The position numbers and the translations under genes are program-made. The notes below the pieces were generated by a model. The model was not told where the DNA came from. It ran no database searches and worked only from the letters and a program-made list of their open reading frames with translations. Of a stretch of DNA of 64,000 nucleotides, positions 9,282-58,679 are shown one piece after another; position 1 is the stretch's first letter, and each line of letters begins with the position of its first letter. The DNA comes from an uncultured Candidatus Saccharibacteria bacterium (GTDB lineage Bacteria; Patescibacteriota; Dojkabacteria; J137), in NCBI GenBank assembly GCA_964607415.1, contig CAZSKK010000001.1, forward strand, positions 260,190-324,189, written 5' to 3'.

Positions 9282-9316
9282 GCTAATAGCTATATGCTAT
9301 AGGCTAATTGCTAATA
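9282..9316. repeat. Heptamer tandem array (GCTAATA GCTATAT GCTATAG GCTAATT GCTAATA) immediately upstream of the Cys-rich protein start
   Basis: Five consecutive 7-bp units matching GCTRWWN, related to the AGCTGAT arrays at 30059 and 45252. Confidence 0.7.
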
Positions 9317-9319
9317 AAA

Positions 9320-11824
9320 ATGTCACGACAAAAAAAGATTTTAATTGGAATTCTTATTTTTCTTACTTTAATTCTTGCTGGAGTTTCAATTTACATAACC
9401 TATAAACTGACTCAAGAGGATCAAGCACCTGAGGATACAAGTGCTTCTGTGTTATGTAGTGCCTTTGATAGCTATGACTCATGTTCAAATGTTGGTGAAA
9501 TAAGATGTAACAATGGTAATGAACAAAGATGTACACGATTTTTCTGTCATGCTACCGATACAACTCAAGCTGCAAATGAAAATAGAGTTAGATGGAATAA
9601 CACAGGAAATACTTGTGGTGGGCAAGATGTTGATGATGGGGAAACCACAAATTTAAATTGTAATGGAGTTTCTTGTACTTTAACTCAATCTACTCAGTGT
9701 GCAAATGCAACAGGAACGATGTTTTATTGTCCAGGTGGCCTAGTTAATGGAAGCTGTTTAGAAAATCCAGTGTCAATTGGTACTTTTCAGCCAGGGCAAA
9801 CAGTCGATGTATCACAGTATTTTACAAGAGGTTGTGGGGGTTATCAAATTGATTTTGAAAGACAAGGTGCAGCACCAGGGTCAGCAACTTGTGGAGCTGC
9901 GACTTTTACAAATAATACCTGTTCACCTACAACTCCCCCACTTGATGGTCAGCAATGTACAAACAGTGCTGGATGTCTAATATTTTTGTGTCCTAATGGT
10001 TGTGGAACTGATGGTAGATGTCAAACAGGTGGAAGTGAAGCTGATGAAGGTGCTACTGTAGTGGTAGATCCAACCTGTTCTGGAGTAATTGGTGGAAATG
10101 GTTGTGGTCAAATCGATGAAATGACTGGTACGGACCCATTGAGTGGAACATTTTGTCAGGTTAGAGCAAACACTTGTGTGGATACTTCAACTCAAGTTTG
10201 CCAACCTGGTTGTAACGATATTTGCGCTCCAAATGCAAATAACCAACAAGGTAATTGTGCAACTGGTCAAATTTGTACCGATGTAAATGGAACAAATAGA
10301 TGTAGACTTGCAACAAATCCTACAAGTGCAACTTGCGAACCTCCAACACAACAACAGACAAGGCAAATTAGTTTTCAAGGAAACGTTTATTGTCAGGATG
10401 GTAATGGACCAGTTTATCAGATTCCAGGTGCTGTGGTTACAGCAAACATTCCTGGCCAAGGCCAATTTTATGAACAAACTAATTCAACTGGAGGTTTTCA
10501 GTTTGATAGGCAAAACTTAACTACAACAAATATGACACTACAGAATTTAAGTGTATCTTTGCCAAATGGAACCTTGCCTACAGGACAGTCTATTGCAGCA
10601 TTGGTAGGTCCTACAGCAACTAATTGTTCAACTGGTACTCAAACTGGTTGCACTGCAGGAACAGGAAATTATTGTTCTACTGGATCCGATCAGTACCAAG
10701 CTTGTACATTAAATGCGCCTCAAATTGTTAATCTTTATCAAAACTTTAACTTTAGATTTACAAACTGCAGTCCTCAACCAAATCAATGTATCGATTTAAT
10801 TGAAGGTGGAGAAGATCCAATTGATGCTGGAGTTGGTAATACTGTAAACTACACTTTACAGTATAGGTTTAATCAAGCTACTAATCCATTCCCAAATATT
10901 AGGCTTAGAGTAGGTCCTTCTGGTACACCTGTAGGAAGAGATTTCTATACGCCAGCAAATGTACTTGTTGCACCAGCAGTAATTTCAAACAATCCTTCCT
11001 ATAATCCTTCAACAGGTATATGGACTTACATATTTACTTGGGAATCTGCTGAAGTAGGTGGTGCTGATGTTGCAGATGGAACGTATGATGTAAGAGTTCT
11101 AACAGATGGTACAGGAGCAAGCGAGGTAACAACCCCTGTTGGTTGTTTGGAAACAATTACCATCACCAATGGAACAACCCAACAGCCAAACTTTCAGGTA
11201 GTTAAAGCTTCTACAAGTGTTTGTGAAGCAGATGGAGATGCTGCAATTAGTTATACTATTACCGTTACTAATATTGGACCAGTAACGGGCGTTATTGATT
11301 TTGTTGAAGACACATTAGATTCTACAGCAATCGCTTTGAACATACTTCCTACAAACATTAATCCTTCCTATGGAAGTTATTCTAATGGAAGAATTACTTG
11401 GATAGGCACTGTAGGGGATAGAACTTATACAGCTGGCCAATCTAGGAATTTTACTTACAGTTTAACTGTGCCAAGAAACAACTTGATTAGCTTTTTAAAT
11501 GGAGTTGACAATCAAGTTGAGGTTGAATTTACTACAACATCAACAAATACAAGAGTCTTCACGCTAACAACAATGTTAACTTGCTCTCTTCCTCCAATTC
11601 CATCAACAGCATTTGGAGATGATGGAGGTAGATATTTACTAATCGGTGGCATGCTAATGGTTATTGCTTTACTAATTTTCAAATTTAGATTGGGTGCTGG
11701 ATATGTAGACAAGTTAATGAATGAAGGCTTAGAATATACTTCAGAAAAGATTACTTCTTCTATGCCTTTTGAAAAAGGAATAGAAAAAAGATTAAAAAGA
11801 AAAACAGGCAAAAAGTCATACTGA
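9320..11824 (+). CDS. Large Cys-, Thr-, Asn-, Gly-, Gln-rich surface protein: N-terminal signal anchor, C-terminal TM helix and short cytoplasmic tail
   Basis: Dozens of cysteines in CxxGxC / TCGG / GCG spacing in the N-terminal ~400 aa; low-complexity T/N/Q-rich middle; C-terminal hydrophobic helix LLIGGMLMVIALLIF followed by a basic tail. Confidence 0.55.
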   Translation: MSRQKKILIGILIFLTLILAGVSIYITYKLTQEDQAPEDTSASVLCSAFDSYDSCSNVGEIRCNNGNEQRCTRFFCHATDTTQAANENRVRWNNTGNTCGGQDVDDGETTNLNCNGVSCTLTQSTQCANATGTMFYCPGGLVNGSCLENPVSIGTFQPGQTVDVSQYFTRGCGGYQIDFERQGAAPGSATCGAATFTNNTCSPTTPPLDGQQCTNSAGCLIFLCPNGCGTDGRCQTGGSEADEGATVVVDPTCSGVIGGNGCGQIDEMTGTDPLSGTFCQVRANTCVDTSTQVCQPGCNDICAPNANNQQGNCATGQICTDVNGTNRCRLATNPTSATCEPPTQQQTRQISFQGNVYCQDGNGPVYQIPGAVVTANIPGQGQFYEQTNSTGGFQFDRQNLTTTNMTLQNLSVSLPNGTLPTGQSIAALVGPTATNCSTGTQTGCTAGTGNYCSTGSDQYQACTLNAPQIVNLYQNFNFRFTNCSPQPNQCIDLIEGGEDPIDAGVGNTVNYTLQYRFNQATNPFPNIRLRVGPSGTPVGRDFYTPANVLVAPAVISNNPSYNPSTGIWTYIFTWESAEVGGADVADGTYDVRVLTDGTGASEVTTPVGCLETITITNGTTQQPNFQVVKASTSVCEADGDAAISYTITVTNIGPVTGVIDFVEDTLDSTAIALNILPTNINPSYGSYSNGRITWIGTVGDRTYTAGQSRNFTYSLTVPRNNLISFLNGVDNQVEVEFTTTSTNTRVFTLTTMLTCSLPPIPSTAFGDDGGRYLLIGGMLMVIALLIFKFRLGAGYVDKLMNEGLEYTSEKITSSMPFEKGIEKRLKRKTGKKSY

Positions 11825-16633: not shown

Positions 16634-18451
16634 TTATCCAACATCCGGCTTATACGAAAGGTTTCCGCCCAAAAGAGTCCTAATATCTTTAATGTTGTGT
16701 TTAGCCATTGCCCATCTATCAAGGCCTAATCCAAAGGCATAACCTTGCCACTTGTTTGAATCAATTCCAGCCATTTGCAGAACTTTTGGATGAATAATTC
16801 CAGCACCACCCATTTCCAGCCAACCTCTGCCTTTACAAAGTGGACAACCTACCCCATGACAATTGAAGCACTGCATATCCGGACCAACACCCGGCTCAAC
16901 TTCTGGATAATATTTATTTCTATATCTTGTTACAACATCTTCACCAAGATAAGTTTTAAACAAATGCTCAATTGTAGAAATTAATTCGGCAAGGCTTACT
17001 TTTTCTTTTACAACAACAAGTTGATACTGGTGAAAAGTAAAGTGATTGCTTCTGTTAACCTTTTCGTTTCGGTAAACTCTTCCAGGCATTACTACTTTGT
17101 ATGGTGGTTCAAAAGTTTCTAAAACTCTAGCCTCAATAGAAGAAGTTTGTGTTCTTAATAAAATATTTGGTTCTTCAATAAAAATACTATCCTGTAGATC
17201 TCTAGCTGGATGGTCTAAAGGCAAATTTAATCTCTGAAAACAATATTCATCAGTTTCAATTTCAGGTCCATCCATAATGCTATAGCCTAATCTATTGAAG
17301 ATTTCATTTAACTCATTTATTGTTTGAGTTAATGGATGTATATGGCCAATTTTAGGTTTATTAAAATTTAACTGCTTCTGATCTTGAAGTAAATAAGACT
17401 TATCCTTTGATTGAAGTAAGGTTTTTTTAGCATCATTAATTTCAGCATCAATAATTGTTTTAACTTGGTTAACTTCTGCTCCATAAATTTTTCTCTTTTG
17501 TGGATCGATTTGGCTAATTTTAGACAAAGCTTCTTTTAGCACACCATCTTTACCTAAATAAGATCTCCAAAGATTTGTTAGTTCTTCTTCAGTTTTTAGT
17601 AAGCTAAGTTTTTCTTTTGCTTCAGCAATCAACGTTTTTAGTGAATCATTTGTAATTTCAACGCTTGAGCTCTTATCACTACTTGAATCTTGAATCTTAA
17701 TTCCTGAATCTATTAAGTAACTTATGGTAGTTTCATTATTTACACTTACAATATCACTAATTATTATATTTCCCACTTCAGACGTAGATTTGACGATTGT
17801 TCCTCCGTCAGCAACAGATCCAATGCCTTCAAGAGTTAACATTCTTAAAGGTTTGTTTTCAGGCAGATTTGGTTGAAGATAAATTGCTGTTTGTTTTAAC
17901 TCTTCTAAAGAAACCATTTTCCAGCTAAAGTGCATATTTTTATTAATAATTTCGTTTACTTTATCTTGAATTTTTTCTTTTACATCTGAAGGCACAATAC
18001 CTTTGTAAGTTATAAAAGGCTTTTTACCATGATCTCCTTTTTGAGGAGATAATGTATTTGGAGATAGCCCCAGCATAAAAACAGCAAAATCAATTATATG
18101 ACCTGCTGAGTGAATTTGCATATGTTTAAAACGTCTGTCCCAGTTTATGCTAGCCGTTACAACCTTACCAACCAAATCAGTCTTTTCAGTTTTAACATAA
18201 TGGCCGATTTCACCATCTTTAACTAAAACTTGATACACATCCAATTTTGTTCCATCATCTAAACTTAGTATTCCTTGATCTGTAGGTTGACCCCCTCCCA
18301 TTGGATAAAACACTGTTTTATCCAAAATGATTTTAGCTGCATCGCCTTCAGGAATTACTTCAAGAATTTTTGCTTTGGTTTCTTTTAAATATGGATCAAG
18401 TAGGTATAGTTGTTCTGTTTTCATTTGCTTTGAATTTGTACCTATTAACAT
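16634..18451 (-). CDS. pheS: Phenylalanine--tRNA ligase alpha subunit with an N-terminal AlaX-like (tRNA editing-type) domain
   Basis: C-terminal ~340 aa carry the PheS catalytic core (FQRLNLPLDHPARDLQDSIF, LLRTQTSSIEAR, GRVYRNE, FHQYQ, GLGLDRWAM) after a coiled-coil. The N-terminal ~265 aa match AlaX-M: DPYLKETKAKILEV...ILDKTVFYPMGGGQPTDQG, then HSAGH (HxxxH). The second zinc motif is degenerate (ADGGTIV instead of CGGTHV). Confidence 0.8.
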   Translation of the reverse strand: MLIGTNSKQMKTEQLYLLDPYLKETKAKILEVIPEGDAAKIILDKTVFYPMGGGQPTDQGILSLDDGTKLDVYQVLVKDGEIGHYVKTEKTDLVGKVVTASINWDRRFKHMQIHSAGHIIDFAVFMLGLSPNTLSPQKGDHGKKPFITYKGIVPSDVKEKIQDKVNEIINKNMHFSWKMVSLEELKQTAIYLQPNLPENKPLRMLTLEGIGSVADGGTIVKSTSEVGNIIISDIVSVNNETTISYLIDSGIKIQDSSSDKSSSVEITNDSLKTLIAEAKEKLSLLKTEEELTNLWRSYLGKDGVLKEALSKISQIDPQKRKIYGAEVNQVKTIIDAEINDAKKTLLQSKDKSYLLQDQKQLNFNKPKIGHIHPLTQTINELNEIFNRLGYSIMDGPEIETDEYCFQRLNLPLDHPARDLQDSIFIEEPNILLRTQTSSIEARVLETFEPPYKVVMPGRVYRNEKVNRSNHFTFHQYQLVVVKEKVSLAELISTIEHLFKTYLGEDVVTRYRNKYYPEVEPGVGPDMQCFNCHGVGCPLCKGRGWLEMGGAGIIHPKVLQMAGIDSNKWQGYAFGLGLDRWAMAKHNIKDIRTLLGGNLSYKPDVG

Positions 18452-30260: not shown

Positions 30261-31310
30261 ATGGCCGATTTTGAAAATTCACATTCGACATACTTAATCG
30301 AAACATTAAGGGGTAACCTTACTGTTTCTGAACAGATTGAAGACCCTATTTTAATAAAACTTGCTGATGAGATTAGATCAATAGCAGATGACATTACCTT
30401 ATATTTTGATCAAAATTGTAGTAATAAGAAGGCTCCGCCTAACATTGTTTTAATTTCTGATGAACTTTTATCTGATTTTTCTGAGGTTAATAGCGGGTTA
30501 ATAAGTAAAAAAGCAAATCACACAGCATTTTATTTAGGCGACAGTACAATATTGATTAATATAACAAGAATTTTAAGTGATTTTGGATTACAAGAACATC
30601 AAATAAATAGACTGAATGAAAAATTAAGTGATGAAGACCAATTAACCCTTCTGGGACCAGATGGGAAACTTTTTTTAAAACTAAGACTTGCAATTGATTT
30701 TTTAGATCATTATGCTATTAAATTAGACGCGAGTAATGGGATACGCTCGCTATTCTCATTTAAGTGGGCTTCGTCAATAAAAAGTAAAGTATTTCATCGC
30801 AAAAATATAGGTATTGTTACTTCATTTGAAAGAGCAACTGAAAAAGGAGCTCGACCGAACTTAGATAATGCAATTTCACACAAAGACTTTTATCAAACAA
30901 ATCTTCTGAAAATATTGGGGTTAAATTTAATTCTGCCTTCAGTTTGTTCGGACACAGAACTAATGACAATTAGTACTGCAGTCTTAACAAGAATTGATGG
31001 TAATCCGAACTTCAACCTTTATAAACCAGATGAGTTTTCTGAAGAAATGAACCGAAATGGAATAAATATAAACGATATAATTGAGTTTTTAAATTCTGAG
31101 AACCCACTAGCCAATATGCTTAGAGTTAATGCATTTGAGCAGGTTGATAAGGTTTCACTAATTCAAACTTTTGCAAGAAGTATACTAAATCCAAACAAAA
31201 ACGATTCAATACTTAAAGCATATTTAATAGCTAGCACGGGAAAAATTAATAATGTTTCGCTTGAAGCCTTATTTCAATTCATATCGGCTACTAGAGATAC
31301 TGAGGGATAA
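30261..31310 (+). CDS. Hypothetical protein
   Basis: 349-aa ORF; no motifs. Confidence 0.4.
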   Translation: MADFENSHSTYLIETLRGNLTVSEQIEDPILIKLADEIRSIADDITLYFDQNCSNKKAPPNIVLISDELLSDFSEVNSGLISKKANHTAFYLGDSTILINITRILSDFGLQEHQINRLNEKLSDEDQLTLLGPDGKLFLKLRLAIDFLDHYAIKLDASNGIRSLFSFKWASSIKSKVFHRKNIGIVTSFERATEKGARPNLDNAISHKDFYQTNLLKILGLNLILPSVCSDTELMTISTAVLTRIDGNPNFNLYKPDEFSEEMNRNGININDIIEFLNSENPLANMLRVNAFEQVDKVSLIQTFARSILNPNKNDSILKAYLIASTGKINNVSLEALFQFISATRDTEG

Positions 31311-31345: not shown

Positions 31346-33856
31346 TCAATTAGAATATTTAGCTGTTTCTCGTACGCGCTCCACTTCTTGTGCTAGTAGC
31401 TCAATATACAAAGCATACCCAATCTGTGAAATATGACCGTGCTGTTTCTTACCTAACAAATCCCCTGCGCCCCTGATTTCTAAATCTTTAGATGCAATTC
31501 TGAATCCAGCGCCTAAATCCTGGTTATCAACCAAAGATTGTAAGCGCTCTAGATATTTTTTCTGAACAAATTTTTTTGTTTTATCGTTAGAAGTATCCAT
31601 CATTTCGTCTTTTTCTATTTTATAATCTTTAAGTTCTTTACCTTCATAAAACAAATAGCAAAATGCTTTTTCTGGGCTTCGCCCAACCCTGCCTCTAAGC
31701 TGATACAGCTGTGACAGCCCAAATTTATGAGCCTTATTAATTATTATTGTATTAACATTTGAAAGGTCTATTCCATTTTCAATGATAGTTGTACAAATCA
31801 AACAATCATATTTTTTTTCATAAAACTCAAACATAATTTTATCAAGTTCATCTGGATTCATTTGTCCATGAGCAAAAACAAACCTAATTTTTGGCGCAAG
31901 AGTCTCAAGTTTCTTTTTTATAGACTGAATTGTTTGAACTTCGTTATGCAAAAAATAAACCTGACCTCCACGCTGAACCTCAAATTCAATAGCCTTAATA
32001 GCCTTGTTCCAATCGTCTTTTATTATTTCGGTTTTAATAGATTGTCTGCCTTTTGGGGGAGTAGTTATAATCGAAATATTTTGAAGAGAGGACAAAGCTA
32101 AACTTAAAGTTCTTGGAATTGGCGTTGCACTAACACTTAAAACATGAACTCCGTAATTTAACTTTTTGAGTTTTTCCTTTTGAGTAACTCCAAATTTTTG
32201 TTCTTCATCTAAGATTATTAACCCAAGATTTTTAAATTCAACGTCATTACTTAAAAGTCTATGCGTTCCAATAACAATATCTACTTTGCCTTCTTTTAGT
32301 CTTTCTAAAACTTTTTTATTTTCGTAAGGTTTTTTAAATCTAGAAATGTAGTCTATTTCGATTGGAAATTCTTTAAATCTTTCCTTAAAAACTTTAAAAT
32401 GCTGCGCTGTTAATACTGTTGTAGGAGTCAAAACTGCAACTTGTAAACCCTTTTCAACAATCTTAAATGCGGCTCGCATCATAACTTCAGTTTTGCCAAA
32501 GCCTACATCCCCAACCAATAATCGATCCATAGGCTTATCTTTTACCAAATCTTCAAGAATTTCATTTGCAGACCTTATTTGATCCTCAGTTTCTTCAAAC
32601 TTAAATTCATTAACAAACTCTTTATATTCTTTTGAATCTTTCTCAAAAATCGGCTCAGCATGGGAAATTTCCCGTTTAGCATAATGTTCCAAAAGTTCCT
32701 TAGCCAAAAGCCTTACAGAAACTTTAACTTTTGACTTTAAGTGTTCCCAGGAAGCTTTTCCAAGTCTTGTTAATCTTGGATCCATGCCGCTATTTCCGAT
32801 ATATTTTGTAATTTTTTCTATTTGGTGTATAGGAACATAAAGCTCGTCGCCTTCTGCATATTTGATTAATAAATAATCTTCGGCGGTACCAAAAGATTCT
32901 TCCTGCTTCATTCCTGAATAAACCCCAACGCCGTAGTCTTCATGAACAACAAAATCACCAATTTCAATATTCCCTTCAAACTGTCTAAGTAATTTCTGAA
33001 TGTTGTTTGAATTAGATTTTTTAATTTTAGAAACAAATACAGTTCCAAAAAGCTCTCTATCAGTAAATATTGCAATTCTTTCTGACTCTGAAAGAAGTCC
33101 AGCCTGAAGTTTTGGAATATGCTTAAACTTCTTAATTTTTGTTTTGGTATATTTAGCTAAAGTTGTGTTTAATTCATCTTCATGATTAGTTTGAATTAAA
33201 ATTTCATAGCCGTTATTTTTAAGTTTTTCAATCTCTTGTTCAAATATATTTAATTTTGAAAAGAAAAGTGGTGGGAAAGTGTAGTCAGTTTCAGTGTAAT
33301 CGCAGTCTTTTGGAATTTCGTTGAGTTTGGAGGAAGTGAAGATTAAACTCTTGAAACCGGAAGATGGAAGTCGGATACCAGTAGGAGAGTTTCCAGCCTC
33401 TGACCTCTGGTATCCGATAACTACTCGTATACCACTCAGGTCATCCCCTTCATCTTTTTTATATTCAGAAATCACTAATTCATTTAAATCTTTTAACTTT
33501 CTACCCAAAATATCATCATACAAATACATTGATTCTAATTTATCTCCAAAAAACTCAAGCTTAATTGGGAAATCATAACCATATGGCCAAACCGAAACTA
33601 TATCTCCTTTTACACTAAATTCTCCTTTTTGAGTAAGTATATTTTGTCTTTCAAGAGATTTAGATAAGTTTTGAACGAAGTCAGAAAACTTTATCTCATT
33701 AGAATATAGAATATATGAGTGTTGAATGTATTCAAAAGCCTCAATGCTAAATCCTTCGGAATAGACGTGCAAGTTTTCCCCATTTATAAAAAGAGGTACC
33801 AGATGAAGGGGAGCTTTTATTATCCTAACACTTTTCATGACTATGCATTTTAACAT
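31346..33856 (-). CDS. mfd: Transcription-repair coupling factor Mfd (compact, 836 aa)
   Basis: Walker [21 protein letters not shown] box [12 protein letters not shown], helicase C motifs and TRG-like C-terminus. The N-terminal UvrB-homology module is much shortened. Confidence 0.8.
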
Positions 33857-33894
33857 GAGTACTGTAATATTTAATTAGTTAAGTAATTTAAGAA

Positions 33895-34671
33895 ATGTCT
33901 TTGTTAGTTTTTAAAGCAATTTCAGAAAATCCAAGAGAATCTTTATCGAGACGTGCGCTAGCCACTTCAATACATAATGAGCTTTCACAAATCTTTGATT
34001 CACTGCAAATCAATGACATACCTGAAATTAATATTTTAGATAGCCAAGAGGAAGATTCAGTACAAAAAGCTCTAAAACTTTTGAGTCAGTTTGATTTAGA
34101 AGAAATTAAAGATTTTATTGAGAAAATAACTGTAAAGGCAACCATTCTGCAGCTCCACACAAATGAATATAAAATTTATTTAGACAGTCTTTTTTTGCCC
34201 TTGTTAAAAGCAAAATTGTATAACGATGAGTTTAATGTCTCAGTTACAGAATCATTTAAGGGGGGAGATCTTTCCAGTAGAGCTACTTTGTTTCTTGCTA
34301 GAGCTGGTATTGTAAAGTTAAAGCAGCTTTTAAATCTAACTTTTCCAGAACTTTTGGCTATTTATAATAATAATTACGCTGCCAGCTCTTCCGCCAATAA
34401 AATTAGTGACGCTCTTCAATTAAAAGGAATGCGCTTATTGAATAGCTATGAAAGAAGGCTAACAAAATTAGACGCTCTGGGTACAAAAGGTGCAAGTTTA
34501 TGCATTTGCGCGGGAATTCTTACTCAAGAAGAATTATGGGAAAAACAATATTCTGGAGCTCAACTTCAAAAAAATCTTGCCCAATATATAGTTCATAGGA
34601 AAAGATATTTGGATCTTAAGTTCCAACAGATACCAATAGTTAAATCATGGATTAATGAAAACGAACATTAA
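33895..34671 (+). CDS. Hypothetical protein with RNAP alpha-CTD-like HhH module (paralog of 35830..36618)
   Basis: SSRATLFLARAGIVKLKQLLNLTFPELL...KISDALQLKGMRLL resembles the alpha-CTD fold pattern; shares motifs with its paralog. Confidence 0.45.
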   Translation: MSLLVFKAISENPRESLSRRALATSIHNELSQIFDSLQINDIPEINILDSQEEDSVQKALKLLSQFDLEEIKDFIEKITVKATILQLHTNEYKIYLDSLFLPLLKAKLYNDEFNVSVTESFKGGDLSSRATLFLARAGIVKLKQLLNLTFPELLAIYNNNYAASSSANKISDALQLKGMRLLNSYERRLTKLDALGTKGASLCICAGILTQEELWEKQYSGAQLQKNLAQYIVHRKRYLDLKFQQIPIVKSWINENEH

Positions 34672-34739
34672 CTTTCTAACACCTTAGAAAGCCTCTAGCC
34701 TGTATAACTTTCAGTAATACTTACTATCTTTTCTAGAAG

Positions 34740-35789
34740 TTAATTATTCCTACCTAATCTTCTTTCATTAATAAACCTTTCAATTACAATGTGTGTTATT
34801 TCTGAAAGGATTAAAAGTGAATGTAAGTAAGTTCTTCCTTCTTGTGTGTCCATACTACTAACCATAAACTTAACAAAATCTTCTCTTAATTCTTCTGGGC
34901 ATAGCAGGCATTGTAAAGGAATTTCGTACATATTCATAACATCTGCTCTGTCTAACCAAATATTGTTACCCCTTACGTGAATATCTGAAATCATTAAATT
35001 TTCAGGAATATTTACGCCAAGATTTTGGAATATATCCACTAGCCGATATGAATTTCCACTACCATCCAGTAGTAAATTTCTTAAATATTGACTGAGTTCA
35101 TTAATTATAGGATTTACTGTAATATCTCTACTTGCTTTTAAATACTTATCAAATTCCTCCTCGTTTTGTATATTTGTAAAATCAAATTCAGGATCATTTC
35201 TAACATCATCTTGATACTTGTCCCATATATTAACAATATACTGATATGTAAACCAATCTTTATTTAAAACAGCATCCCTTACTTTTTTGTTAGAAAAATA
35301 ATCATCATAGTTCTTCCTTGATTCCTGTCGTCTTTTTCTTGCATGGACAATACTGACTTCTGCTCTTTTATGAATTTCCTCATCAACAAAAGGTGAAATT
35401 TCAGCTATCAAAGCTTGAATTAGAATTTGTCTTTCTTCCTTTGTATAACCTTTATTGTATTTTTCTATGTCAGCGTCAACCTTATCTTGAATAAATTTTG
35501 CAATTGAGCTCCAAGCTTTTTCTTCAAGATTATGAGTCCAGTGGTGGCTGTATTCAGCTTTCTTATCTTCGGGAAAATTAACAAGATTTACGTACATTGT
35601 TACAAGTGTTTTGGCCTGAAAAGAAAGCTGATACTGCGCAAATGCATATGCTTTCTGATAAATCTGAAGATCCAAAGTCTTTTCTTCTTCAGGTGTTAGG
35701 TTAAATGGATTTTCTGATTGTGGAGTAACCTCACTTTCAACATCTTTGTCATTTGGCAAATTTGGTAAATTATTAAATGAATCACTCAT
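34740..35789 (-). CDS. Hypothetical protein
   Basis: 349-aa ORF flanked by the two alpha-CTD-like paralogs; no motifs. Confidence 0.4.
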   Translation of the reverse strand: MSDSFNNLPNLPNDKDVESEVTPQSENPFNLTPEEEKTLDLQIYQKAYAFAQYQLSFQAKTLVTMYVNLVNFPEDKKAEYSHHWTHNLEEKAWSSIAKFIQDKVDADIEKYNKGYTKEERQILIQALIAEISPFVDEEIHKRAEVSIVHARKRRQESRKNYDDYFSNKKVRDAVLNKDWFTYQYIVNIWDKYQDDVRNDPEFDFTNIQNEEEFDKYLKASRDITVNPIINELSQYLRNLLLDGSGNSYRLVDIFQNLGVNIPENLMISDIHVRGNNIWLDRADVMNMYEIPLQCLLCPEELREDFVKFMVSSMDTQEGRTYLHSLLILSEITHIVIERFINERRLGRNN

Positions 35790-35829
35790 ATTTAGTATAT
35801 AACTAATTAATATACTCTATTAGTAAAGT

Positions 35830-36618
35830 TTGGTGTACAATTTATCAATGGCCTTATTTGTATTTGAAGCTGCTGAACAAAATGAAGATACTCCTCTGAA
35901 CAAGTCCTATGCGCACTCCTTGTATCTTGCTCTTTCATCAGCTCTTGAGGTTACACAGTCACAGGATATATTTTTTCAAGAAATTGTAGATCAATTAACT
36001 CATGAACCTCAGTCTGCAAATGTTGTTGACGTGGCATTAAATTTACTAGTGACAAAGCTTAAATTCCCAAATAGTTCAATTTTTGATGTTTGGCGAAGAT
36101 CAAAAGAATTGGAAATATATGTTAGTCCATCTGATTTTTATAATTACTTGAGTTTAAGGGGTTTGCTTCAAAAGCCCATGGAAATAAAGGTCATAGGAAT
36201 ATCTGAGTTATTTCGTGATAATAAACTAACCTCAAGTGCTTTACAAAGAAATGGTATAGGCACTTTAAAACAGCTGATAAACTTAACCCTAACAGAGTTA
36301 GGCTCTTTAGATAGAATTGGAAAAACTAATATTCAGCATGTACTCCAAATGCTTACACCGCTAGGATATAGTCTACTTACTGAAAGTCAAAGAAAGCGAA
36401 GTAAATTAGATAAACTCGGTACCGATGGTGCGGTGTTTTCAATTAGATGTAAAATTTACAATCTGGACGATTTACTGAATTCTGAATTTTTAACTGCATA
36501 TAAAACAAATAGGAATTCTGCGAACGAACTTGGAAGATTAATGTTTGGTATGAATGAATTTGAACAATCAACTTTCATGAAAGGATGGAGAAAATTTAAT
36601 AAGCTTGACGAACAGTAA
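35830..36618 (+). CDS. Hypothetical protein with RNAP alpha-CTD-like HhH module (paralog of 33895..34671)
   Basis: LTSSALQRNGIGTLKQLINLTLTELGSLDRIGKTNIQHVLQMLTPLGYSL follows the alpha-CTD signature; N-terminus also conserved with the paralog. Confidence 0.45.
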   Translation: MVYNLSMALFVFEAAEQNEDTPLNKSYAHSLYLALSSALEVTQSQDIFFQEIVDQLTHEPQSANVVDVALNLLVTKLKFPNSSIFDVWRRSKELEIYVSPSDFYNYLSLRGLLQKPMEIKVIGISELFRDNKLTSSALQRNGIGTLKQLINLTLTELGSLDRIGKTNIQHVLQMLTPLGYSLLTESQRKRSKLDKLGTDGAVFSIRCKIYNLDDLLNSEFLTAYKTNRNSANELGRLMFGMNEFEQSTFMKGWRKFNKLDEQ

Positions 36619-39600
36619 CTATATGATCTTCTTCAACCACTGCCCCGTGTAACTTTCGGAAACATTTGAAATTTGCGCTGGAGTTCCTTCGGCAATTATT
36701 TGACCTCCTCCTTGTCCTCCCTCGGGACCTAAATCAATGATCCAATCTGCTGTTTTTATTACATCAAGATTATGCTCAATTACAATAACTGTATTTCCCC
36801 TAGCTACTAGCCCGTGTAGCACAACCAAAAGTTTTCTAACATCTTCAAAATGTAATCCTGTGGTCGGTTCGTCTAAAATATATAATGTTTTACCTGTATA
36901 TCTTTTAGATAACTCCGATGAAAGTTTAACTCTTTGTGATTCTCCACCAGAAAGTGTTGTGGCACCTTGTCCTAGCCTAATATATCCTAACCCAACATCA
37001 TTTAATGTTTGAAGTTTACTTTTAATTACTGGAACTTTATCAAAAAATTCAACAGCTTCTTCAACAGGCATATTCAAAACCTCGGAGATATTCTTACCTT
37101 TATAGTCTATTTGAAGTGTTTCTCTGTTATATCTTAAACCTTTGCATTCTTCACAAGTTACATAAACATCAGGCAAAAACTGCATCGCAATTTTAATTAC
37201 TCCAGCTCCTTCACACTTTTCACACCTTCCACCTTTAACATTGAAGCTAAATCTGCCAGATTTATAACCCCTGATTTTTGACTCTTTGGTTTGAGCAAAA
37301 ATCTCCCTTATTTGGGTAAAAACTCCAGTATAAGTTGCTGGATTTGATCTTGGTGTCCTTCCGATTGGAGATTGATCAATATCAATAATTTTATCAATGT
37401 TCTCAATTCCACGTAGTTCTTTGTAAGCACCAGGGTTATCACTAGCCCCATTTATCTGCTTTGCTAGTGCTTTATACAGCACGTCATTTACGAGTGAGGA
37501 TTTTCCTGAGCCTGAAACTCCAGTTATACTTACAAATCTACCCAATGGAATTTCCAGGTCAACGTTTTTAAGATTATTATGAGTGACGCCATAAAGCTTA
37601 ATGTAATTTCCATTAGATTTTCTAAATTCATGAATACCTATTTCTTTAAGCTCTTTTTTGATTTCAGTTATATCAATTTTTCTTTTGCCACTTAAATACT
37701 TTCCTGTGATAGATCTTTCCTGTTTTATTATGTCTTCTACATTTCCAGTAGCAACAACTTCGCCGCCGTGTTCACCTGCTAAAGGTCCTATGTCCACAAC
37801 GTAATCAGCTTTCCTTATCGTATCTTCATCATGTTCAACAACAACAACAGTGTTTCCAATATCCCTTAAATTTTCTAAGGTTTTAATCAGCCTGTCATTA
37901 TCACGCTGATGTAGGCCAATTGATGGCTCATCAAGTACATACATAACTCCAGTTAAACCTGTTCCTATTTGAGAGGCAAGCCTTATACGCTGAGATTCTC
38001 CCCCCGAAAGTGTTCTTGCAGTCCTATTTAGAGTTAAATATTCAAGTCCAACAGAGTTTAAAAAATTCAATCTTACGGCTATCTCTTTAAAAATTTGTTT
38101 ACCAATTTGCATTTCTTGCTCAGAAAGCTTATCTTCGCTAGCTAAAATTTCTGGAAAAGTAAAAAGTTCAGTAAGCACTGAACCTGCAATCTCCCCTCCT
38201 GATAGAGGATTAGGGGGAGTGTCTTCTCGGGATTGAAGTGATGTTATCCACCTGTGCGCATCTTTAATAGACATATTTCCAATATCTACAATATTTTTGC
38301 CTTCAATTGTTACGGCCAAAGCTTCTTTTTTAAGTCTGTATCCTTTGCATTCTGCGCAGGGTTTTTCAATCATGTATTGCTCAATTTCAGATCTAATATA
38401 TTCTGAATCTGTTTCGCTGTATCGTCTTAGAAGATTTGGAATTACGCCTTCAAATTCAATTTTTAGTGATCTCATTTCTCCGTTCGAATCTTCATATTCA
38501 ATGTCAAATTTTTCATTTTTGACTCCATAAAGTAAGATTTCAAGCTGCTCTTCAGGCAATTTTCCAAGAGATTTTCTTAAATCAATTTTCTTTTTTTCAG
38601 AAACTTTCTGAATTAATCTCATCGTAAATGATTTTGGGTTTTCAATAACTCTATTCCAAGGATAAATTCCACCCTCCATAACAGTTAACCTTGGATTATA
38701 AATATTTGATGGATCAATTTCTTTTATTGTGCCAAGACCATTACAAACAGGGCATGCACCAAAAGGAGAGTTAAAAGAAAAAGTGTGTGGTTCAATTTCT
38801 GAAAAAGATTGTCCTGATTCTGGATCTACTAACTTTTCAGAGTAAAAAACATCATCTGATTGGCCATCAGGAAGATTCACTAAAACTTCTCCATCTCCTA
38901 AATTAATTGAAAGCTCTATTGAATCAGTTAATCTTTTTAAAAGCTCTGAATCATCTTTTGAGTTTTTATCAATAACAAGTCTATCAATAACAAGTTCAAT
39001 ATTGTGTTTTTTAAATTTATCAAGCTTTATTTCTTCTTCAAGACTATAAACATTTCCATCAACTCTAACTCTTACAAAACCCTGAGATAAGAATCTTGAA
39101 AACAATTCTTCGTATGTTCCTTTTCTATTTTTGATTAGGGGTGCAAGTACTATTATTTTTATTGAAGATAGATCTCCCTCTCCCTTGGGAGAGGGTTGGG
39201 GTGAGGTAAACCTCATGTAGTAATTTAAAATATCATCTACAATTTGTTGAACTGTTTGTTTTTCTAATCTTCTACCTGAAATTGGACTTCTTGCATGGCC
39301 GCATCTTGCAAAAAATAATCTTAAATAATCGTAAATTTCGGTAACAGTTCCAACAGTTGAACGAGGATTGTGACCTGCAGATTTTTGATCTATTGAAATT
39401 GCTGGAGATAAACCTTCTATAAGATCCACATCAGGTTTTTCCATTAAACCCAAAAATTGCCTTGCATATGCAGACAATGATTCGACATACCTGCGCTGAC
39501 CTTCAGCATACAATGTATCAAACGCTAAAGATGATTTTCCAGAGCCTGAAAGGCCTGTAATTACCGTAAGTTTATCTTTTGGAAGATCTACGTCTATATT

Positions 39601-39654
39601 CTTAAGATTATTAGTCCTAGCACCTCTAATTTTGATTATATCCATGTGTTGCAT
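36619..39654 (-). CDS. uvrA: Excinuclease ABC subunit A
   Basis: [61 protein letters not shown], both ABC modules and zinc-finger Cys clusters. Start placed at [13 protein letters not shown]; the extra 29 codons in the ORF track lie upstream of the predicted promoter. Confidence 0.9.
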
Positions 39655-39684
39655 AACTGAGAAATGTGAAGTTTGTAACAGAAG

Positions 39685-39693
39685 ATTATAACA
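39685..39693 (-). promoter_or_regulatory. Extended -10 promoter (TGtTATAAT on minus strand) for uvrA
   Basis: Plus-strand ATTATAACA is the reverse complement of TGTTATAAT, 31 nt upstream of the chosen uvrA start. Confidence 0.4.
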
Positions 39694-39830
39694 CAGCCTC
39701 GCCCCTTTCGCATTCACGAAGACCCTCTCCTGAGACAACATATTATGCTGTAGAATGGAGCTAATAAAATCTCAATAGGCTAATATCCTGTCCTCGGGGT
39801 GGCGAGCAAAGTGAGCCGGGTGATGCTGTG

Positions 39831-47990: not shown

Positions 47991-48836
47991 TTAAAGCTTT
48001 ATTCCAGCTTTATCCGATTTAATAATCAAGTAATTAATAAACGACGAACTAGAAACAAGAAAGAAACGTGCATCTTCAAACTCTAACTTATCTTTGTCTA
48101 ATAGTGAATGACGTATGCCTCCTTCCTCATTAGTGTAACCATATAATTTTTTAAATGACTCTTTAAGTGCTGGGTGAATCTCAACCTTTCCTGACTTTTC
48201 AATAATGTTGAGTGCATCTCCTAGAGTAGCTTTGACATTATTTGAAATTTTTTTACAGATAGCTTCAACAGCACTTATAGATTCCTTAATTGAGTTACGA
48301 TAGTCTGGTACATTTTTATCTGAAATTTTATCAAGAGCATTTCTTAAATGAGAAGATACGTAATTAGGTGAGCTATCAATTGCACTTTCAATCTCTTCTA
48401 TTTCTTCTTTGGAAGTAATTTCCACAATACTTTCATCAACTATCCTGTAAGCAGATAATTCCCTTTCTAAAACATTATTGCAATCATTAATGAATGTATT
48501 TACATTGTAGCCAGGATAGCGTTTTATTGTAAATTCAATAAAGTCATACGCTTCATACCATTCAAACGAAAAATAATCAGCTCTTATTCCACTATATGTA
48601 TTTTTTGTATAAAGCTCTAATGTATCTAAAGGCCTCTTAAAAAAGCCAATCCAGAGAGCCTTAAAATAAGAATGCATTCTTTCATCATAACTTAACCATT
48701 CTTCTTTTCTTAACTCCTCCCAGATATAAAGTGATAAAACATTCCATAAGCCCACCTTTAAATCATCATCCATCGATTCTTTTTGAATTATTTGCTTTGG
48801 TTCCTTTATCCCTAATCTTTGCGAAAATATTACCAT
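47991..48836 (-). CDS. AbiJ-like abortive-infection candidate (N-terminal AbiJ-NTD-like region plus Abi_C/HEPN-like C-terminus)
   Basis: N-terminus MVIFSQRLGIKEPKQIIQKESMDDDLKVGLWNVL and C-terminus ATLGDALNIIEKSGKVEIHPALKESFKKLYGYTNEEGGIRHSL resemble the Abi_C conserved block as I recall it; not verified. Confidence 0.4.
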   Translation of the reverse strand: MVIFSQRLGIKEPKQIIQKESMDDDLKVGLWNVLSLYIWEELRKEEWLSYDERMHSYFKALWIGFFKRPLDTLELYTKNTYSGIRADYFSFEWYEAYDFIEFTIKRYPGYNVNTFINDCNNVLERELSAYRIVDESIVEITSKEEIEEIESAIDSSPNYVSSHLRNALDKISDKNVPDYRNSIKESISAVEAICKKISNNVKATLGDALNIIEKSGKVEIHPALKESFKKLYGYTNEEGGIRHSLLDKDKLEFEDARFFLVSSSSFINYLIIKSDKAGIKL

Positions 48837-53236: not shown

Positions 53237-53528
53237 TAGTTTTCTTTTTATAGTGTACTTCGGCCATGTTATAGGTTTACTTGAAATTGATGGCTATGCT
53301 CACCTAATCTTTATAGAACCTAGCTTATGCTACTTTTAAACAACTTGCCTTAAATACAACAAGTATATCTTTTAATTTTACTCTAAAGCTTTAACTCAAC
53401 AAGTTTGTATTTTCATTTTGAGAAAAAATGACAATGTATTAGAATTTAGTATGCTCAATTCGCTGACTTCAACTACCGAAGCTCAGAAATTTATCTTCAA
53501 AGTCTTTACTTTTTATTCTTTATACCCT

Positions 53529-55235
53529 ATGAGGAAAGTACCACTCAAAGCGTTTGGCGTTTTTGCCTTGACGCTGGTTCTTACTTTGTCTGGTTTTTCA
53601 ATGTTTCTAAGTAGCGTACATGCTACGCCGCTTTCAACGTTACAAGAAGATTTTGTAGACTTGGACGACTGGACAAACCTTCACGATAACCTTTATAGTT
53701 CTTCCATAAGCTCTGGTGAATTACTCTTTGCAAACATTCATAGTTTAGGTGTTGGAAAATTAGAATCTGAGTACGTAGAAGTTTCTAATTTACCCCATAC
53801 TTTAACTTACAGAACAAAAACTCAAGGTGCAAAATTTGTAAGAATTCAAGTAAAAGGGTTTGATTCTGATTTTGAACCAACTGAAGAATTTACCTGTACT
53901 GAAGAAAATCTGGAAGGAACAGTTGCGTACGATGAATATGAATGTCCGGTTACACTGTCTGAAGAGAACATAAATACTAGATATGTAAAAGTTACTATTA
54001 TGTTTAAAGCTAAAGTTCCTGGAGGGAAAACATGGTTTGATTATATTTATTTAGACGAAGATACAGTTACTGCAAAGACGTGGCAAGAATTAGGTTCAGG
54101 ATCAGCTTCATCAAACGGAATTTCTAATACTTCAACTGCATCAGAATTGTGGGGCTTGGAATATGATTCCAATGATAATCCTGTTGTAGGCTGGATAGAT
54201 ACGGATACAGGTGTAAGCCATGTTCAAAAATTTAACGGTACTAGTTGGGATGAGCTTGGAGACCCAGGAGATCAAGGTGGATATCTTGCGTTTGACTCAA
54301 ATGATGATTTATATGTAACCTGGTGGGCTCAACAATCTGGCGGTGATAACGAAATCTATGTTAAAAAGTTTGATGGAACAGATTGGGTTGATGTTGGTTC
54401 AGGTTCTGGATCAGGTGGAGGAATTAGTAATAATTCAACTGATTCAGTTGGCCCAAGAATGGTTATAGACTCGAACGATAATATTTATGTAATCTGGCAT
54501 GATGCAGATTCAGGGGATTATGAAATTTATGTAAAAAAATTTAACGGCACAAATTGGGTAGATGCTGGTACTAACTCTTCTTCAAGCGGAGGAATTAGCA
54601 ATAACGGTGGACACTCTTTCATAACTGATATAGAGCTAATGGCTGATGGTGTAACACCAGTAGCCGCATGGCAAGATCAATCAGGTGGAGGTAATAATGT
54701 TTATATGAAAAAATTTAATGGCACAAGCTGGATTGAACTTTACTCAGGCTCTGCCTCAAGTGGTGGGGTTACAGGCAGTAATCAAGCCGGCTTTAGATCA
54801 ATGGCTATTGACTTAACTGACAATATTTACATAACATGGATTGATTACAAATCTCAAGGATCTAATGAAGATATTTACGTAAAAAGATTTGATGGCAGTA
54901 ATTGGTATGAAGTTGGTACTGGTTCGGCATCAAGCTCTGGAATTGGAAATACAGGAACCACATGGGGACATGTTGATATAAATCTAGACGAAAATGGACT
55001 TCCATATGTTGCCTGGGCTGAAACAAATGGTGGTGACTTTGAAACATTTGTAAAGAGATTTGACGGAACAAGTTGGGTTAGTATTGCAGGTTCTGGAACT
55101 GGAACGGGTATTAGTAATACTTCTGCAAGATCTTCCTCACCAAGGGTTAGGATATCATCAACGGGTGTCCCTCTGGTTGCATGGATTGATGCTACACCTG
55201 GAAATGATGAAATTTTTGTAAAGTGGTATAAGTAA
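53529..55235 (+). CDS. Secreted repeat protein, probable 7-bladed beta-propeller
   Basis: Signal peptide MRKVPLKAFGVFALTLVLTLSGFSMFLSSVHA, then about seven ~55-aa repeats each with [YF]VKKF[ND]GT.W...G.GS.SSGGIS. Confidence 0.5.
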   Translation: MRKVPLKAFGVFALTLVLTLSGFSMFLSSVHATPLSTLQEDFVDLDDWTNLHDNLYSSSISSGELLFANIHSLGVGKLESEYVEVSNLPHTLTYRTKTQGAKFVRIQVKGFDSDFEPTEEFTCTEENLEGTVAYDEYECPVTLSEENINTRYVKVTIMFKAKVPGGKTWFDYIYLDEDTVTAKTWQELGSGSASSNGISNTSTASELWGLEYDSNDNPVVGWIDTDTGVSHVQKFNGTSWDELGDPGDQGGYLAFDSNDDLYVTWWAQQSGGDNEIYVKKFDGTDWVDVGSGSGSGGGISNNSTDSVGPRMVIDSNDNIYVIWHDADSGDYEIYVKKFNGTNWVDAGTNSSSSGGISNNGGHSFITDIELMADGVTPVAAWQDQSGGGNNVYMKKFNGTSWIELYSGSASSGGVTGSNQAGFRSMAIDLTDNIYITWIDYKSQGSNEDIYVKRFDGSNWYEVGTGSASSSGIGNTGTTWGHVDINLDENGLPYVAWAETNGGDFETFVKRFDGTSWVSIAGSGTGTGISNTSARSSSPRVRISSTGVPLVAWIDATPGNDEIFVKWYK

Positions 55236-57135: not shown

Positions 57136-57726
57136 ATGTCAAACCCCAATAAAGATTTAGACTATACATTTGAAAAACAATCACTTTATGACTTTTCTAA
57201 CACCTTCGATCACCTTGTAGGAGAAAATACTGTTGAATTTATAAAAAAGTCTCTGGCCGAAATATCAGACGATCATCAAAGAGTTGTTGATTTGGGAGCA
57301 GGAGAAGGCGTTCTGTTAAGGCAAATGCAAAATGAATTGGAAAGAACCGGAATGTCAAATATTGAATTTGAAAACGTATCACTTAGAGAAATGCGCAAGG
57401 ATGCGCAAATAGCTTCAGATACGCACTGGAATATAAAATATACCCTGCAAGATGTGAATGAATGGCTAGCAAAACAACCAAATCAAAGTATTGATGTAAT
57501 AAACACGTCACATTTACTTGAGCATTTAGAAAATCCCTTACACTCAATTATTATAATGCTAACAAAATTAAAGAACGGAGGAGTTTTATTTTGCACTGCT
57601 GAATTTATGACAAATGGTGTTTCAGATAGTGACTTAAAAGAACTATTTAAAGGACTTGAATATGCAAACTTTCAGATCAATTCGAAAAAAACAGCTAATG
57701 GCTGGGCCTTTGTTATTAAAAAATGA
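57136..57726 (+). CDS. Class I SAM-dependent methyltransferase
   Basis: VVDLGAGEGVLL motif I; stop overlaps the next gene start. Confidence 0.55.
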   Translation: MSNPNKDLDYTFEKQSLYDFSNTFDHLVGENTVEFIKKSLAEISDDHQRVVDLGAGEGVLLRQMQNELERTGMSNIEFENVSLREMRKDAQIASDTHWNIKYTLQDVNEWLAKQPNQSIDVINTSHLLEHLENPLHSIIIMLTKLKNGGVLFCTAEFMTNGVSDSDLKELFKGLEYANFQINSKKTANGWAFVIKK

Positions 57727-58679
57727 TCATGTACTTATCATTGCTGGATGCTATAACTCCAATTAATCTTAAAGACGAAAAGGTAAAGTTTTTTAAAAAT
57801 AACTTCAACTATAACCCTGCTTTTGAATATAAATGGGAAAAAATTCAATTTGAACGTAATAAGTATAAAAATCCTTTTAAGCAAGGTTTAATTTATGCGG
57901 TTTTGGATCAGAATACAAATTTAATTATTGAAAATGCCAAAAGCTACTTTGGGGTTGATATAAATAAGTATAAGAAAAAAGCGCAGGAGATTATAAAAAA
58001 TACTGGATTAACTTATCTAAATCAAAATGTTGAAGACCTAGCCAATGAATTTGAAAAAGCTTTCAATTACTTTGATTTGCAAGAATATAAAGTGGAAATT
58101 GCTGATTTGCATGGATTTAATTGTAGACCTAAGACAATTACAAAAATAATGCAGATTTCTAAATATGCTAATTTAGATTTGGCTTCAATTTCTGGAACAA
58201 TTAAGCACGAAATGGTTCATGTTCTAAGACACGAAAATAAAATTTTTAATAACCTAAAAAAATCGCATGACTATTTATCCACAGAGGAAGGATTAGCTTC
58301 GTTTTTGCAGGATAAATCAGCAGATAGCGGGCTATCACTATTTCAACATGCAGCTGAATATTTAGCAACAGAGATCGCGCTTGAAGGTTCTTTTATAGAT
58401 ATTTTTAATTTTTTCCTGCAAGCTGGATTCACCAAAGACCTTGCCTGGAAAAGAGCAACTAGGCATAAATTTGGATTTAAGGATACTTCTAAACCTGGTG
58501 ATATTATCAAACCTGCAATGTACTTTTACTTTGAGAATGAGATAAAAAAACTAAATATAGATGAAATATTACGATTATTTATAGGAAAAATTTCAATAGA
58601 TGATTTGAAATATTACCCTGAATATAAAGGCAGGTTTGAGAAGGAAAAATTAATTGAATTTTTTAGTTTAATGATATAG
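57723..58679 (+). CDS. DUF1704 / QEGLA-motif family protein
   Basis: HEMVH (HExxH) plus STEEGLASF (QEGLA-like) about 40 aa downstream. Confidence 0.45.
   Translation: MIMYLSLLDAITPINLKDEKVKFFKNNFNYNPAFEYKWEKIQFERNKYKNPFKQGLIYAVLDQNTNLIIENAKSYFGVDINKYKKKAQEIIKNTGLTYLNQNVEDLANEFEKAFNYFDLQEYKVEIADLHGFNCRPKTITKIMQISKYANLDLASISGTIKHEMVHVLRHENKIFNNLKKSHDYLSTEEGLASFLQDKSADSGLSLFQHAAEYLATEIALEGSFIDIFNFFLQAGFTKDLAWKRATRHKFGFKDTSKPGDIIKPAMYFYFENEIKKLNIDEILRLFIGKISIDDLKYYPEYKGRFEKEKLIEFFSLMI

Follow-up and report, generated by a model that had tools for sequence, protein, structure and literature searches.

A rare family of proteins with an alpha-CTD-like module in a strain-variable gap between mfd and uvrA

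Transcription activators and UP-element DNA dock chiefly on the C-terminal domain of the RNA polymerase alpha subunit (alpha-CTD), free-standing copies of which could act as competitors, adaptors, or decoys. The alpha-CTD fold, a pair of helix-hairpin-helix motifs ((HhH)2), belongs to the same class as the C-terminus of UvrC, domain II of RuvA, and the N-terminal domain of RAD51, in which (HhH)2 domains bind the DNA backbone non-specifically. Here we describe two genes, A and B, which lie between mfd and uvrA in a 64,000-nucleotide (nt) stretch of contig CAZSKK010000001.1 (hereafter the window, whose coordinates are used throughout), from an uncultured bacterium assigned to the Dojkabacteria. 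Both are functional accessory genes that vary between strains, and they belong to a very rare protein family, which pairs an alpha-CTD-like module with two domains of no known family and is confined to one lineage with a genome of roughly 585 kb. The locus is a manageable system in which to study the function of such mimics and the way in which tiny genomes gain accessory variation by microhomology-mediated copying of a gene together with its neighbour's tail.

The A and B proteins resemble RpoA in containing a homologous (HhH)2 module of ~65 residues, with the same hydrophobic core and T-x-x-E-L helix cap, that a flexible linker joins to an N-terminal domain. They differ from RpoA in that this N-domain is unrelated to the RpoA assembly domain (no match to PF01000 or PF01193 at E<=1), in carrying a C-terminal extension of ~80 amino acids (aa), and in having largely lost the "265 determinant" discussed below. 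Their NCBIfam matches are restricted to the C-terminal ends of rpoA models: TIGR02027 and NF003519 score 13.6–17.6 bits, against cutoffs of 227.8 and 277, and do so over the C-terminal ~50 positions only.

The module also occurs outside RpoA in phage proteins (A0A6J5L490 and, from Rhodococcus phage Finch, A0A2P1JY10), which are annotated as "RNA polymerase alpha subunit C-terminal" and are the top structural matches in BFVD, a viral structure library, as well as in the multi-repeat proteins P0007, P0012, P0016, and P0018, which match the family in the alpha-CTD module only (E 1e-20 to 1e-3). Unlike A and B, these phage and multi-repeat proteins contain neither the N-domain nor the C-extension, and many consist of tandem repeats or are fused to sigma-like helix-turn-helix (HTH) or helicase domains; no described function for them was found in the literature searched, which likewise contained no described standalone alpha-CTD-like protein and no characterised example. 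With the modules of UvrC, RuvA, and RAD51, A and B share the fold class and proximity to repair genes, but their profiles match alpha-CTD only, with no match to a Pfam HHH family, and the G-h-G signatures of the hairpins are not conserved across the A/B family. The features of the mfd-uvrA gap are as follows.

31346–33856, minus strand: mfd, the left conserved border (Pfam UvrB_inter, CarD_TRCF_RID, DEAD, and Helicase_C)
33895–34671, plus strand: gene A, an open reading frame (ORF) of 258 aa encoding an N-domain (aa 1–~105), a linker, an alpha-CTD-like module (aa ~112–182), and a basic C-extension
34228–34440, plus strand: alpha-CTD-like (HhH)2 module of A, from alignment with the B. subtilis and E. 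coli alpha-CTD and from the family profile searched against PDB
34672–34737, no strand given: relic of a uvrA 3' end after the stop of A, colinear with the DNA after the stops of B and B-like genes
34740–35789, minus strand: gene M, 349 aa, all-helical, function unassigned, on the same strand as uvrA and mfd
35848–36618, plus strand: gene B, 256 aa, with a four-part architecture like that of A; its stop adjoins the stop of uvrA
36181–36375, plus strand: alpha-CTD-like (HhH)2 module of B, from alignment, PDB searches, and Foldseek
36619–39741, minus strand: uvrA, the right conserved border (Pfam UvrA_inter, UvrA_DNA-bind, and ABC_tran)

The alpha-CTD-like module and its family

Taken singly, the two proteins match alpha-CTD only weakly. 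In hmmscan, A scores 18.0 bits against PF03118 (RNA_pol_A_CTD; E=2e-3, aa 125–158) and B scores 14.7 bits (E=0.026), both under the gathering threshold of 23.8 bits; a phmmer search of PDB with B returned E-values of 0.1–1.5, yet 13 of 13 matches were RpoA chains. At the family level the similarity is significant. A 270-aa relative found at B's slot on contig L015, which the hidden Markov model (HMM) of the A/B family reaches at E=1.7e-13, scores 43.2 bits on PF03118 (E=3.4e-11) and covers positions 4–67 of 67. A profile of six family sequences searched against all PDB sequences retrieved RpoA alpha-CTD in 51 of its 52 matches, the best being B. subtilis 3gfk_B (E=3e-7) over residues 8–76 of 79, which is the whole domain. 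An AlphaFold2 model of B, of moderate confidence and based on a 5-sequence alignment (predicted local distance difference test (pLDDT) 70, predicted TM-score (pTM) 0.44), has helices at 130–172 and superposes on alpha-CTD chains, which are its top Foldseek matches (root-mean-square deviation (rmsd) 0.7–3 Å, TM(target) 0.6–0.72, probability about 1); for 1z3e_B the rmsd is 0.7 Å over 48 columns (TM(target) 0.69, probability 1.0). Given the PF03118 score of the L015 protein, the family profile, and the superposition of the B model, the alpha-CTD resemblance of A and B is real and reflects homology.

A preliminary description of this DNA, made from the letters alone, had proposed an alpha-CTD-like HhH module in both proteins and named structure prediction as a check on it, and the proposal is borne out by the profile and model comparisons above. 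Its details require correction. The module had been placed at the C-terminus, but it is central (~residues 112–176 or 112–182) and is followed by the C-extension. A "GMRL" ending had been cited as a further likeness; the GMRL of A aligns with GLSL of E. coli, 4 residues before E. coli's own GMRL, and, being out of register, is therefore a coincidence.

Based on the model and the alignment, A and B each comprise four parts. An acidic helical N-domain (~1–105; pLDDT about 80, isoelectric point (pI) 4.5, net charge −7) is followed by a linker of about 15–20 residues (~109–128, pLDDT <50), the alpha-CTD-like module (pI 9.5–10, net charge +2 to +4), and the helical C-extension, which has a net charge of +3 in A and B and is acidic or neutral in the 270-aa type and in P0009, a family member from a second locus. 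The best-conserved motif of the family, ER..[ST]KLD.LGT.GA, lies in the C-extension and is also visible in the DNA as a 43-nt repeat that is 72% identical. Searches of Pfam, NCBIfam, Foldseek, and BFVD gave no family or fold match for the N-domain or the C-extension. The C-extension was considered as a second alpha-CTD/HhH copy; its register looks suggestive, but hhalign does not support the relationship (E=0.06, probability 0.9%).

We aligned the module with the alpha-CTD of B. subtilis (from the PDB search) and of E. coli and examined the 265 determinant, the set of residues with which alpha-CTD contacts UP-element DNA, which in E. coli numbering consists of R265, N268, C269, G296, K298, and S299. 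At these positions, in order, A contains R, L, F, A, S, and S; B contains S, a deletion, a deletion, G, T, and N; the 270-aa type contains Q, N, I/A, G, V/R, and K/R; and P0009 contains S, a deletion, a deletion, N, I, and S. The R265 equivalent survives only in A, that of N268 only in the 270-aa type, that of G296 in two of the four types, and that of K298 in none. No position of the determinant is conserved among all four sequence types, and none of them carries the residue set of a functional UP-element reader. The first, DNA-contact helix is shortened by 3 residues in B and P0009, with loss of the R265 and N268 equivalents in B, while in A a 3-residue insertion destroys the second hairpin (NNNYAASSS replaces N-L-G-K-K-S). 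B retains both hairpin glycines (N-G-I-G and R-I-G-K). The invariant features of the family are the hydrophobic core and Q-L-x-N-L-T-x-x-E-L, a structural helix cap.

These residues bear on whether A and B are classical DNA-binding regulators or nucleoid-associated proteins, in which the alpha-CTD module would read A/T-rich minor grooves much as that of RpoA reads UP elements. Homology to alpha-CTD, the basic module, an AT-rich genome (32% G+C), the R265 equivalent of A, and the G-K of the second hairpin in B are all consistent with such a reader. Nevertheless, at most one-third of the six-residue determinant is conserved in any member and no position family-wide, and the helix deletion in B and P0009 and the disrupted second hairpin of A count against it as well, so we consider this role improbable. 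Because the RpoA-like layout, the fold, and the core are kept, whereas the UP-reading residues and hairpin glycines are not kept family-wide, we tentatively favour the view that each protein works as an alpha-CTD mimic or adaptor in free-standing form, docking on a protein partner or loosely on DNA. The module would act mainly as a docking surface for a partner that recognizes alpha-CTD-type surfaces; alternatively, the mildly basic module and C-extension could make loose contact with DNA. The acidic N-domain might provide a second interaction or self-association. The outcome would be a strain-specific modulation of transcription or of a DNA transaction, and no core function in nucleotide excision or transcription-coupled repair would be expected.

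The relationship between A and B had been described as paralogy, and it is indeed far beyond chance: the proteins are 26% identical over their full length (BLASTP E=3e-13). The ORF of B extends upstream to a TTG at 35830, which gives 262 aa, but its start is most likely the ATG at 35848, giving 256 aa, because the NCBI copy is 256 aa long and the N-termini of the family align from that Met (MALFVF / MSLLVF / MGLFIL). Identical copies of A are present on 11 contigs from several SRA samples, the locus with identical proteins occurs on 11–14 contigs from different sequencing runs, and the A and B proteins are also encoded on an NCBI contig of 584,792 bp. The ratio of nonsynonymous to synonymous substitution rates (dN/dS) is 0.10 for B (against its ortholog on contig L014), 0.18–0.29 for M, 0.50 for the pair of B-like genes on L015 and L028, and 0.04–0.06 for mfd and uvrA; these values indicate that the genes are functional. 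A and B might still be suspected of being decaying or spurious ORFs antisense to an operon, as they break an otherwise co-directional uvrA-M-mfd order and are absent from relatives. Such a reading is effectively refuted by the selection and homology data (the dN/dS of B, the full-length paralogy, the significant domain match in a relative, and intact ORFs on 11–14 independent contigs), and we regard it as exceedingly improbable.

The family is small. In a HMMER search of the A/B profile against 1.84 billion cluster representatives, 20 proteins were found at E<=1e-3, and besides B and a fragment of A only P0015 (270 aa, of the B-like type) and P0009 (162 aa, without the N-domain) match beyond the alpha-CTD module, so that the family amounts to four sequence types in this collection. 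The remaining matches are either generic proteins with alpha-CTD repeats or fusions with helicase or sigma-like HTH domains. Word-indexed homolog searches with A and B returned the query itself or nothing. Scans of viral contigs, and of JGI metagenomes with protein patterns and a family-specific DNA motif, detected no family member, the motif scan returning only a generic Zn-ribbon plus alpha-CTD protein and a leucine-rich-repeat (LRR) protein, and tblastn against 50,697 phage genomes gave no match. In agreement with the preliminary description, which did not recognize the architecture, Pfam, NCBIfam, PADLOC, and PHROGs contain no family for it beyond PF03118.

The gap between mfd and uvrA in related strains

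Both neighbours had been identified correctly as mfd and uvrA, as confirmed by Pfam, and the ORF list likewise agrees with the earlier placement of a 349-aa gene, M, between the paralogs on the opposite strand. The spacers are short: mfd and A are 38 nt apart, A and M 68 nt, and M and B ~58 nt, and B and uvrA, which are convergent, adjoin directly (0 nt). A scan for promoter and terminator consensus sites found no more of them than in shuffled sequence. M matches no family in Pfam, NCBIfam, PADLOC, or PHROGs, its AlphaFold2 model (pLDDT 69) has no fold match in PDB, and a scan of GTDB genomes with the M alignment gave a single spurious match, a sigma-54 activator that shares the word YSHYWTHNL.

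For comparison we used contigs encoding relatives of M (91, 83, 77, and 60% identity) and the contig of P0015. They are arranged as follows.

Window: mfd, A, M, B, uvrA
L014: an unrelated gene of 297 aa where A would be, M (91%), B (96%)
L017: mfd directly adjoining M (82%); A missing
L015: M (77%) together with a B-like gene of 270 aa (only 35% identity to B)
L028: mfd, a novel gene of 163 aa, a B-like gene of 270 aa, uvrA; M missing
L011/L013: uvrA, M (60%), and mfd in the same direction, with no member of the family

Between the window and these relatives, the amino acid sequences of Mfd and UvrA are 86–95% and 94–96% identical, respectively, and nucleotide homology stops precisely where mfd and uvrA end. 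What lies between them is a hypervariable islet: depending on the strain, the slot convergent with the uvrA 3' end is occupied by one or another highly divergent family member, and M is the islet's older occupant. At synonymous sites, mfd and uvrA of the window and of L011 have diverged by about 0.7; the gains and losses have therefore taken place among fairly close relatives. As the content of the gap differs in every lineage, position alone cannot be read as function. It had been suggested from position that A and B are DNA- or RNA polymerase-associated accessory factors, with co-occurrence and conserved neighbourhood as the check. Read as a role beside Mfd or UvrA, this does not hold: relatives with 93–96% identical Mfd and UvrA lack the genes or have swapped them (L011/L013, L017, L028, and L014), and A and B do not co-occur with mfd/uvrA. 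A location between two repair genes did not predict a conserved association here, which is a caution against such readings.

Two genes that share the gap with family members or replace them are themselves without a family match. The 297-aa gene of L014 (1946–2839) contains several segments that look HhH-like by eye but have no profile support, and it was rejected as a diverged family member (hhalign probability 0.3%). The other is the 163-aa orphan ORF (ORFan) of L028 (2524–3015). A second 349-aa ORFan is located in the window at 30261–31310 (plus strand), between ychF and mfd; a paralogous relationship to M was rejected (E=0.04 over 61 aa). In L011/L012 the counterpart of this ORFan shows 30–31% identity and a dN/dS of 0.49, compared with about 90% identity for YchF and 93% for Mfd. 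This part of the window shows conserved core genes alternating with fast-evolving ORFans.

Compared with L011 and L017, the window carries an 873-bp insertion at A (33856–34728). The 66 nt after the stop of A (34672–34737) are colinear with the DNA behind the stops of B and the B-like genes, that is, with the 3' end of uvrA on the opposite strand, to which this relic is about 75% identical. Local alignment of the relic to the uvrA tails of L014, L011, and L028 gives scores of 26–29, compared with 8 ± 1.5 for dinucleotide shuffles, of which 0/2000 reach the observed score; the final codons of A and B also correspond (AACGAACATTAA vs GACGAACAGTAA). This relic behind its stop shows that A arose as a copy of the gene in the slot next to uvrA; part of the uvrA tail was carried along, and the copy was inserted into the spacer between mfd and M. 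The last ~10 nt of the relic (TTTTCTAGAAG) coincide with the ancestral M-mfd spacer, and the right junction lies within a TTTTCTRGA string that is common to the uvrA tail and the ancestral spacer (L011, L017), which suggests that A was placed by microhomology-mediated recombination.

Upstream of A and B, no sequence similarity beyond chance was detected. While the relic is ~75% identical to uvrA, the A and B proteins are only about 28% identical to each other, and for this reason the source of A was probably not B but a divergent allele of the slot, possibly that of another strain; otherwise, strong positive selection must have acted on A. The flanks of A and B contain no meaningful direct or inverted repeats and no transposon-like repeats, and no integrase is encoded in the A/B neighbourhood; the genes thus lack the marks of IS, transposon, or prophage cargo. 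The sole structural trace is the copied uvrA tail with its ~10 nt of junction microhomology.

The same variability could mean that the gap is a recombination hot spot for conflict cargo, that is, diversifying cassettes such as decoys or sensors for factors that target alpha-CTD. Cassettes only ~30–35% identical are located between flanks that are 94–96% identical, they are gained and lost, and unrelated ORFans (of 297 aa in L014 and of 163 aa in L028) take their place; the B-like gene has an elevated dN/dS (0.50), and one cassette was apparently copied by microhomology. Phages carry standalone alpha-CTD proteins, P0015 matches an alpha-CTD-like segment (799–870) of the defence kinase PglW (E=1.2e-5), a domain-level similarity, and A retains an arginine equivalent to R265, the residue of alpha-CTD that is ADP-ribosylated by Alt and ModA of phage T4. 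On the other hand, A, B, and M have no match in PADLOC or PHROGs, no enzymatic or effector domain is present, the phage genomes and viral contigs contained no match, and no integrase or mobile-element signature is found nearby. B is under ordinary purifying selection (dN/dS 0.10), and neighbouring ORFans such as that at 30261–31310 evolve equally fast, so variability may be general among non-core genes of this genome. Weighing these points, we think a conflict function unlikely.

A more specific form of this idea is that the uvrA-3' slot is a diversifying locus of interchangeable alpha-CTD-mimic "alleles" that serve as decoys or sensors against phage or host factors which bind or modify the alpha-CTD of RNA polymerase, with A as a second allele recently captured on the mfd side. 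We put this forward as speculation with little chance of being correct; if true, it would constitute an undescribed class of RNA polymerase-mimicry immunity or counter-immunity in an ultra-small genome.

Repair-gene adjacency and the proposed docking role

P0009 is the only family member found at another locus. This locus was recovered in four samples, and SRR35674854 also yielded the L013 contig, which is without A and B. The P0009 gene is followed after 8 nt, on the same strand, by a gene for a 3-methyladenine DNA glycosylase (PF02245, Pur_DNA_glyco), with which it is apparently co-transcribed; a DUF559 endonuclease-like (Vsr-like) gene and dprA are nearby, and the G+C content is 32%, as in the window. 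On L024 (3270–5247; also on L025–L027), P0009 and the AAG-type glycosylase gene are followed by a 133-aa ORFan and the DUF559 gene, so that a relative carries a small gene cluster with a flavour of repair. If repair genes account for an estimated 2–3%, roughly, of all genes, this one independent replicate of repair adjacency corresponds to about p=0.05 and is no more than suggestive.

Several points weigh against a docking mimic or adaptor. Every known family slot touches a DNA-repair gene (the uvrA 3' end, the glycosylase gene, and secondarily mfd), an adjacency more in line with a role in repair than with one in transcription. The docking role is read from residue conservation and architecture only. 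In A and B the alpha-CTD module and C-extension are mildly basic, and B has both hairpin glycines, so these proteins may still bind DNA. The organism's own RpoA lies outside the window, and the alignment references were those of B. subtilis and E. coli. Finally, the B model is of moderate confidence and its Foldseek E-values (0.1–5) are not significant alone, the unimpressive values being due to the shortness of the domain.

The repair adjacency raises the possibility of a DNA-repair accessory, in which (HhH)2 would bind the DNA backbone non-specifically and assist or tether UvrA, Mfd, or the AAG-type glycosylase. B and B-like genes are convergent with uvrA and abut it in four lineages, the uvrA relic behind A implies that A too began beside uvrA, and P0009 has its close glycosylase and DUF559 neighbours; the mildly basic module and C-extension of A and B would suit DNA contact, and complexes of the RAD51 N-domain are among the weaker Foldseek matches. 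Yet L011, with 93–94% identical Mfd and UvrA, contains no family member in the gap, and L028 retains a B-like gene after losing M. B and the B-like protein share 35% identity, against 96% for the adjoining UvrA, a pattern unlike that of a co-evolving partner. Moreover, no hairpin or DNA-contact residue is common to all four sequence types, the C-extension is acidic or neutral in two of them, B and uvrA are convergent and not co-transcribed, and the literature searched contains no link between UvrA and alpha-CTD. A repair accessory is thus conceivable but doubtful; if the adjacency holds, it could point to a new (HhH)2 helper of repair enzymes in reduced genomes. The mimic or adaptor that we favour and the repair, conflict, and DNA-reader roles are not all mutually exclusive.

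Other genes of the window

The Mfd encoded in the window is only 836 aa long (830–832 aa as called in relatives), ends ~30 residues after the helicase/RecG_dom3_C region, and has no match to the Pfam TRCF (D7) domain at E<=1. In E. coli Mfd, D7 auto-inhibits the UvrA-binding D2 module, and by analogy the Mfd of the window may be constitutively open. The uvrA ORF is 1040 aa long, but its first ~32 residues are not UvrA-like, and the gene is called at 1008 aa on L001 and at 994 aa in L011; translation probably begins at an internal ATG, yielding the 1008-aa form.

The window has a G+C content of 32% and contains many ORFs without a Pfam match and one DUF5656 protein, features that, with the 585-kb contig, would be in keeping with a reduced genome of the CPR/Patescibacteria type. 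Two ORFs without a Pfam family, at 9308–11824 (plus strand, 838 aa) and 53418–55235 (plus strand, 605 aa), coincide with its only G+C peaks (0.39 vs a background of 0.31) and may be foreign or compositionally distinct. An unusually long PheS of 605 aa (16634–18451, minus strand) has the class II core and the N-terminal domain of PheS and, fused to them, an additional N-terminal segment that matches the C-terminal end of the alanyl-tRNA synthetase model (PF01411, positions 473–552). At 47991–48836 (minus strand) a 281-aa protein matches AbiJ_NTD4, an abortive-infection-type defence domain (E=1.9e-34), in an otherwise minimal genome. Two further proteins are unexpected for a genome of ~585 kb: a ferric-reductase/NOX-like membrane flavoprotein (667–1965, plus strand; PF01794 with FAD/NAD domains) and a MATCAP-like protein (57723–58679, plus strand; PF08014).

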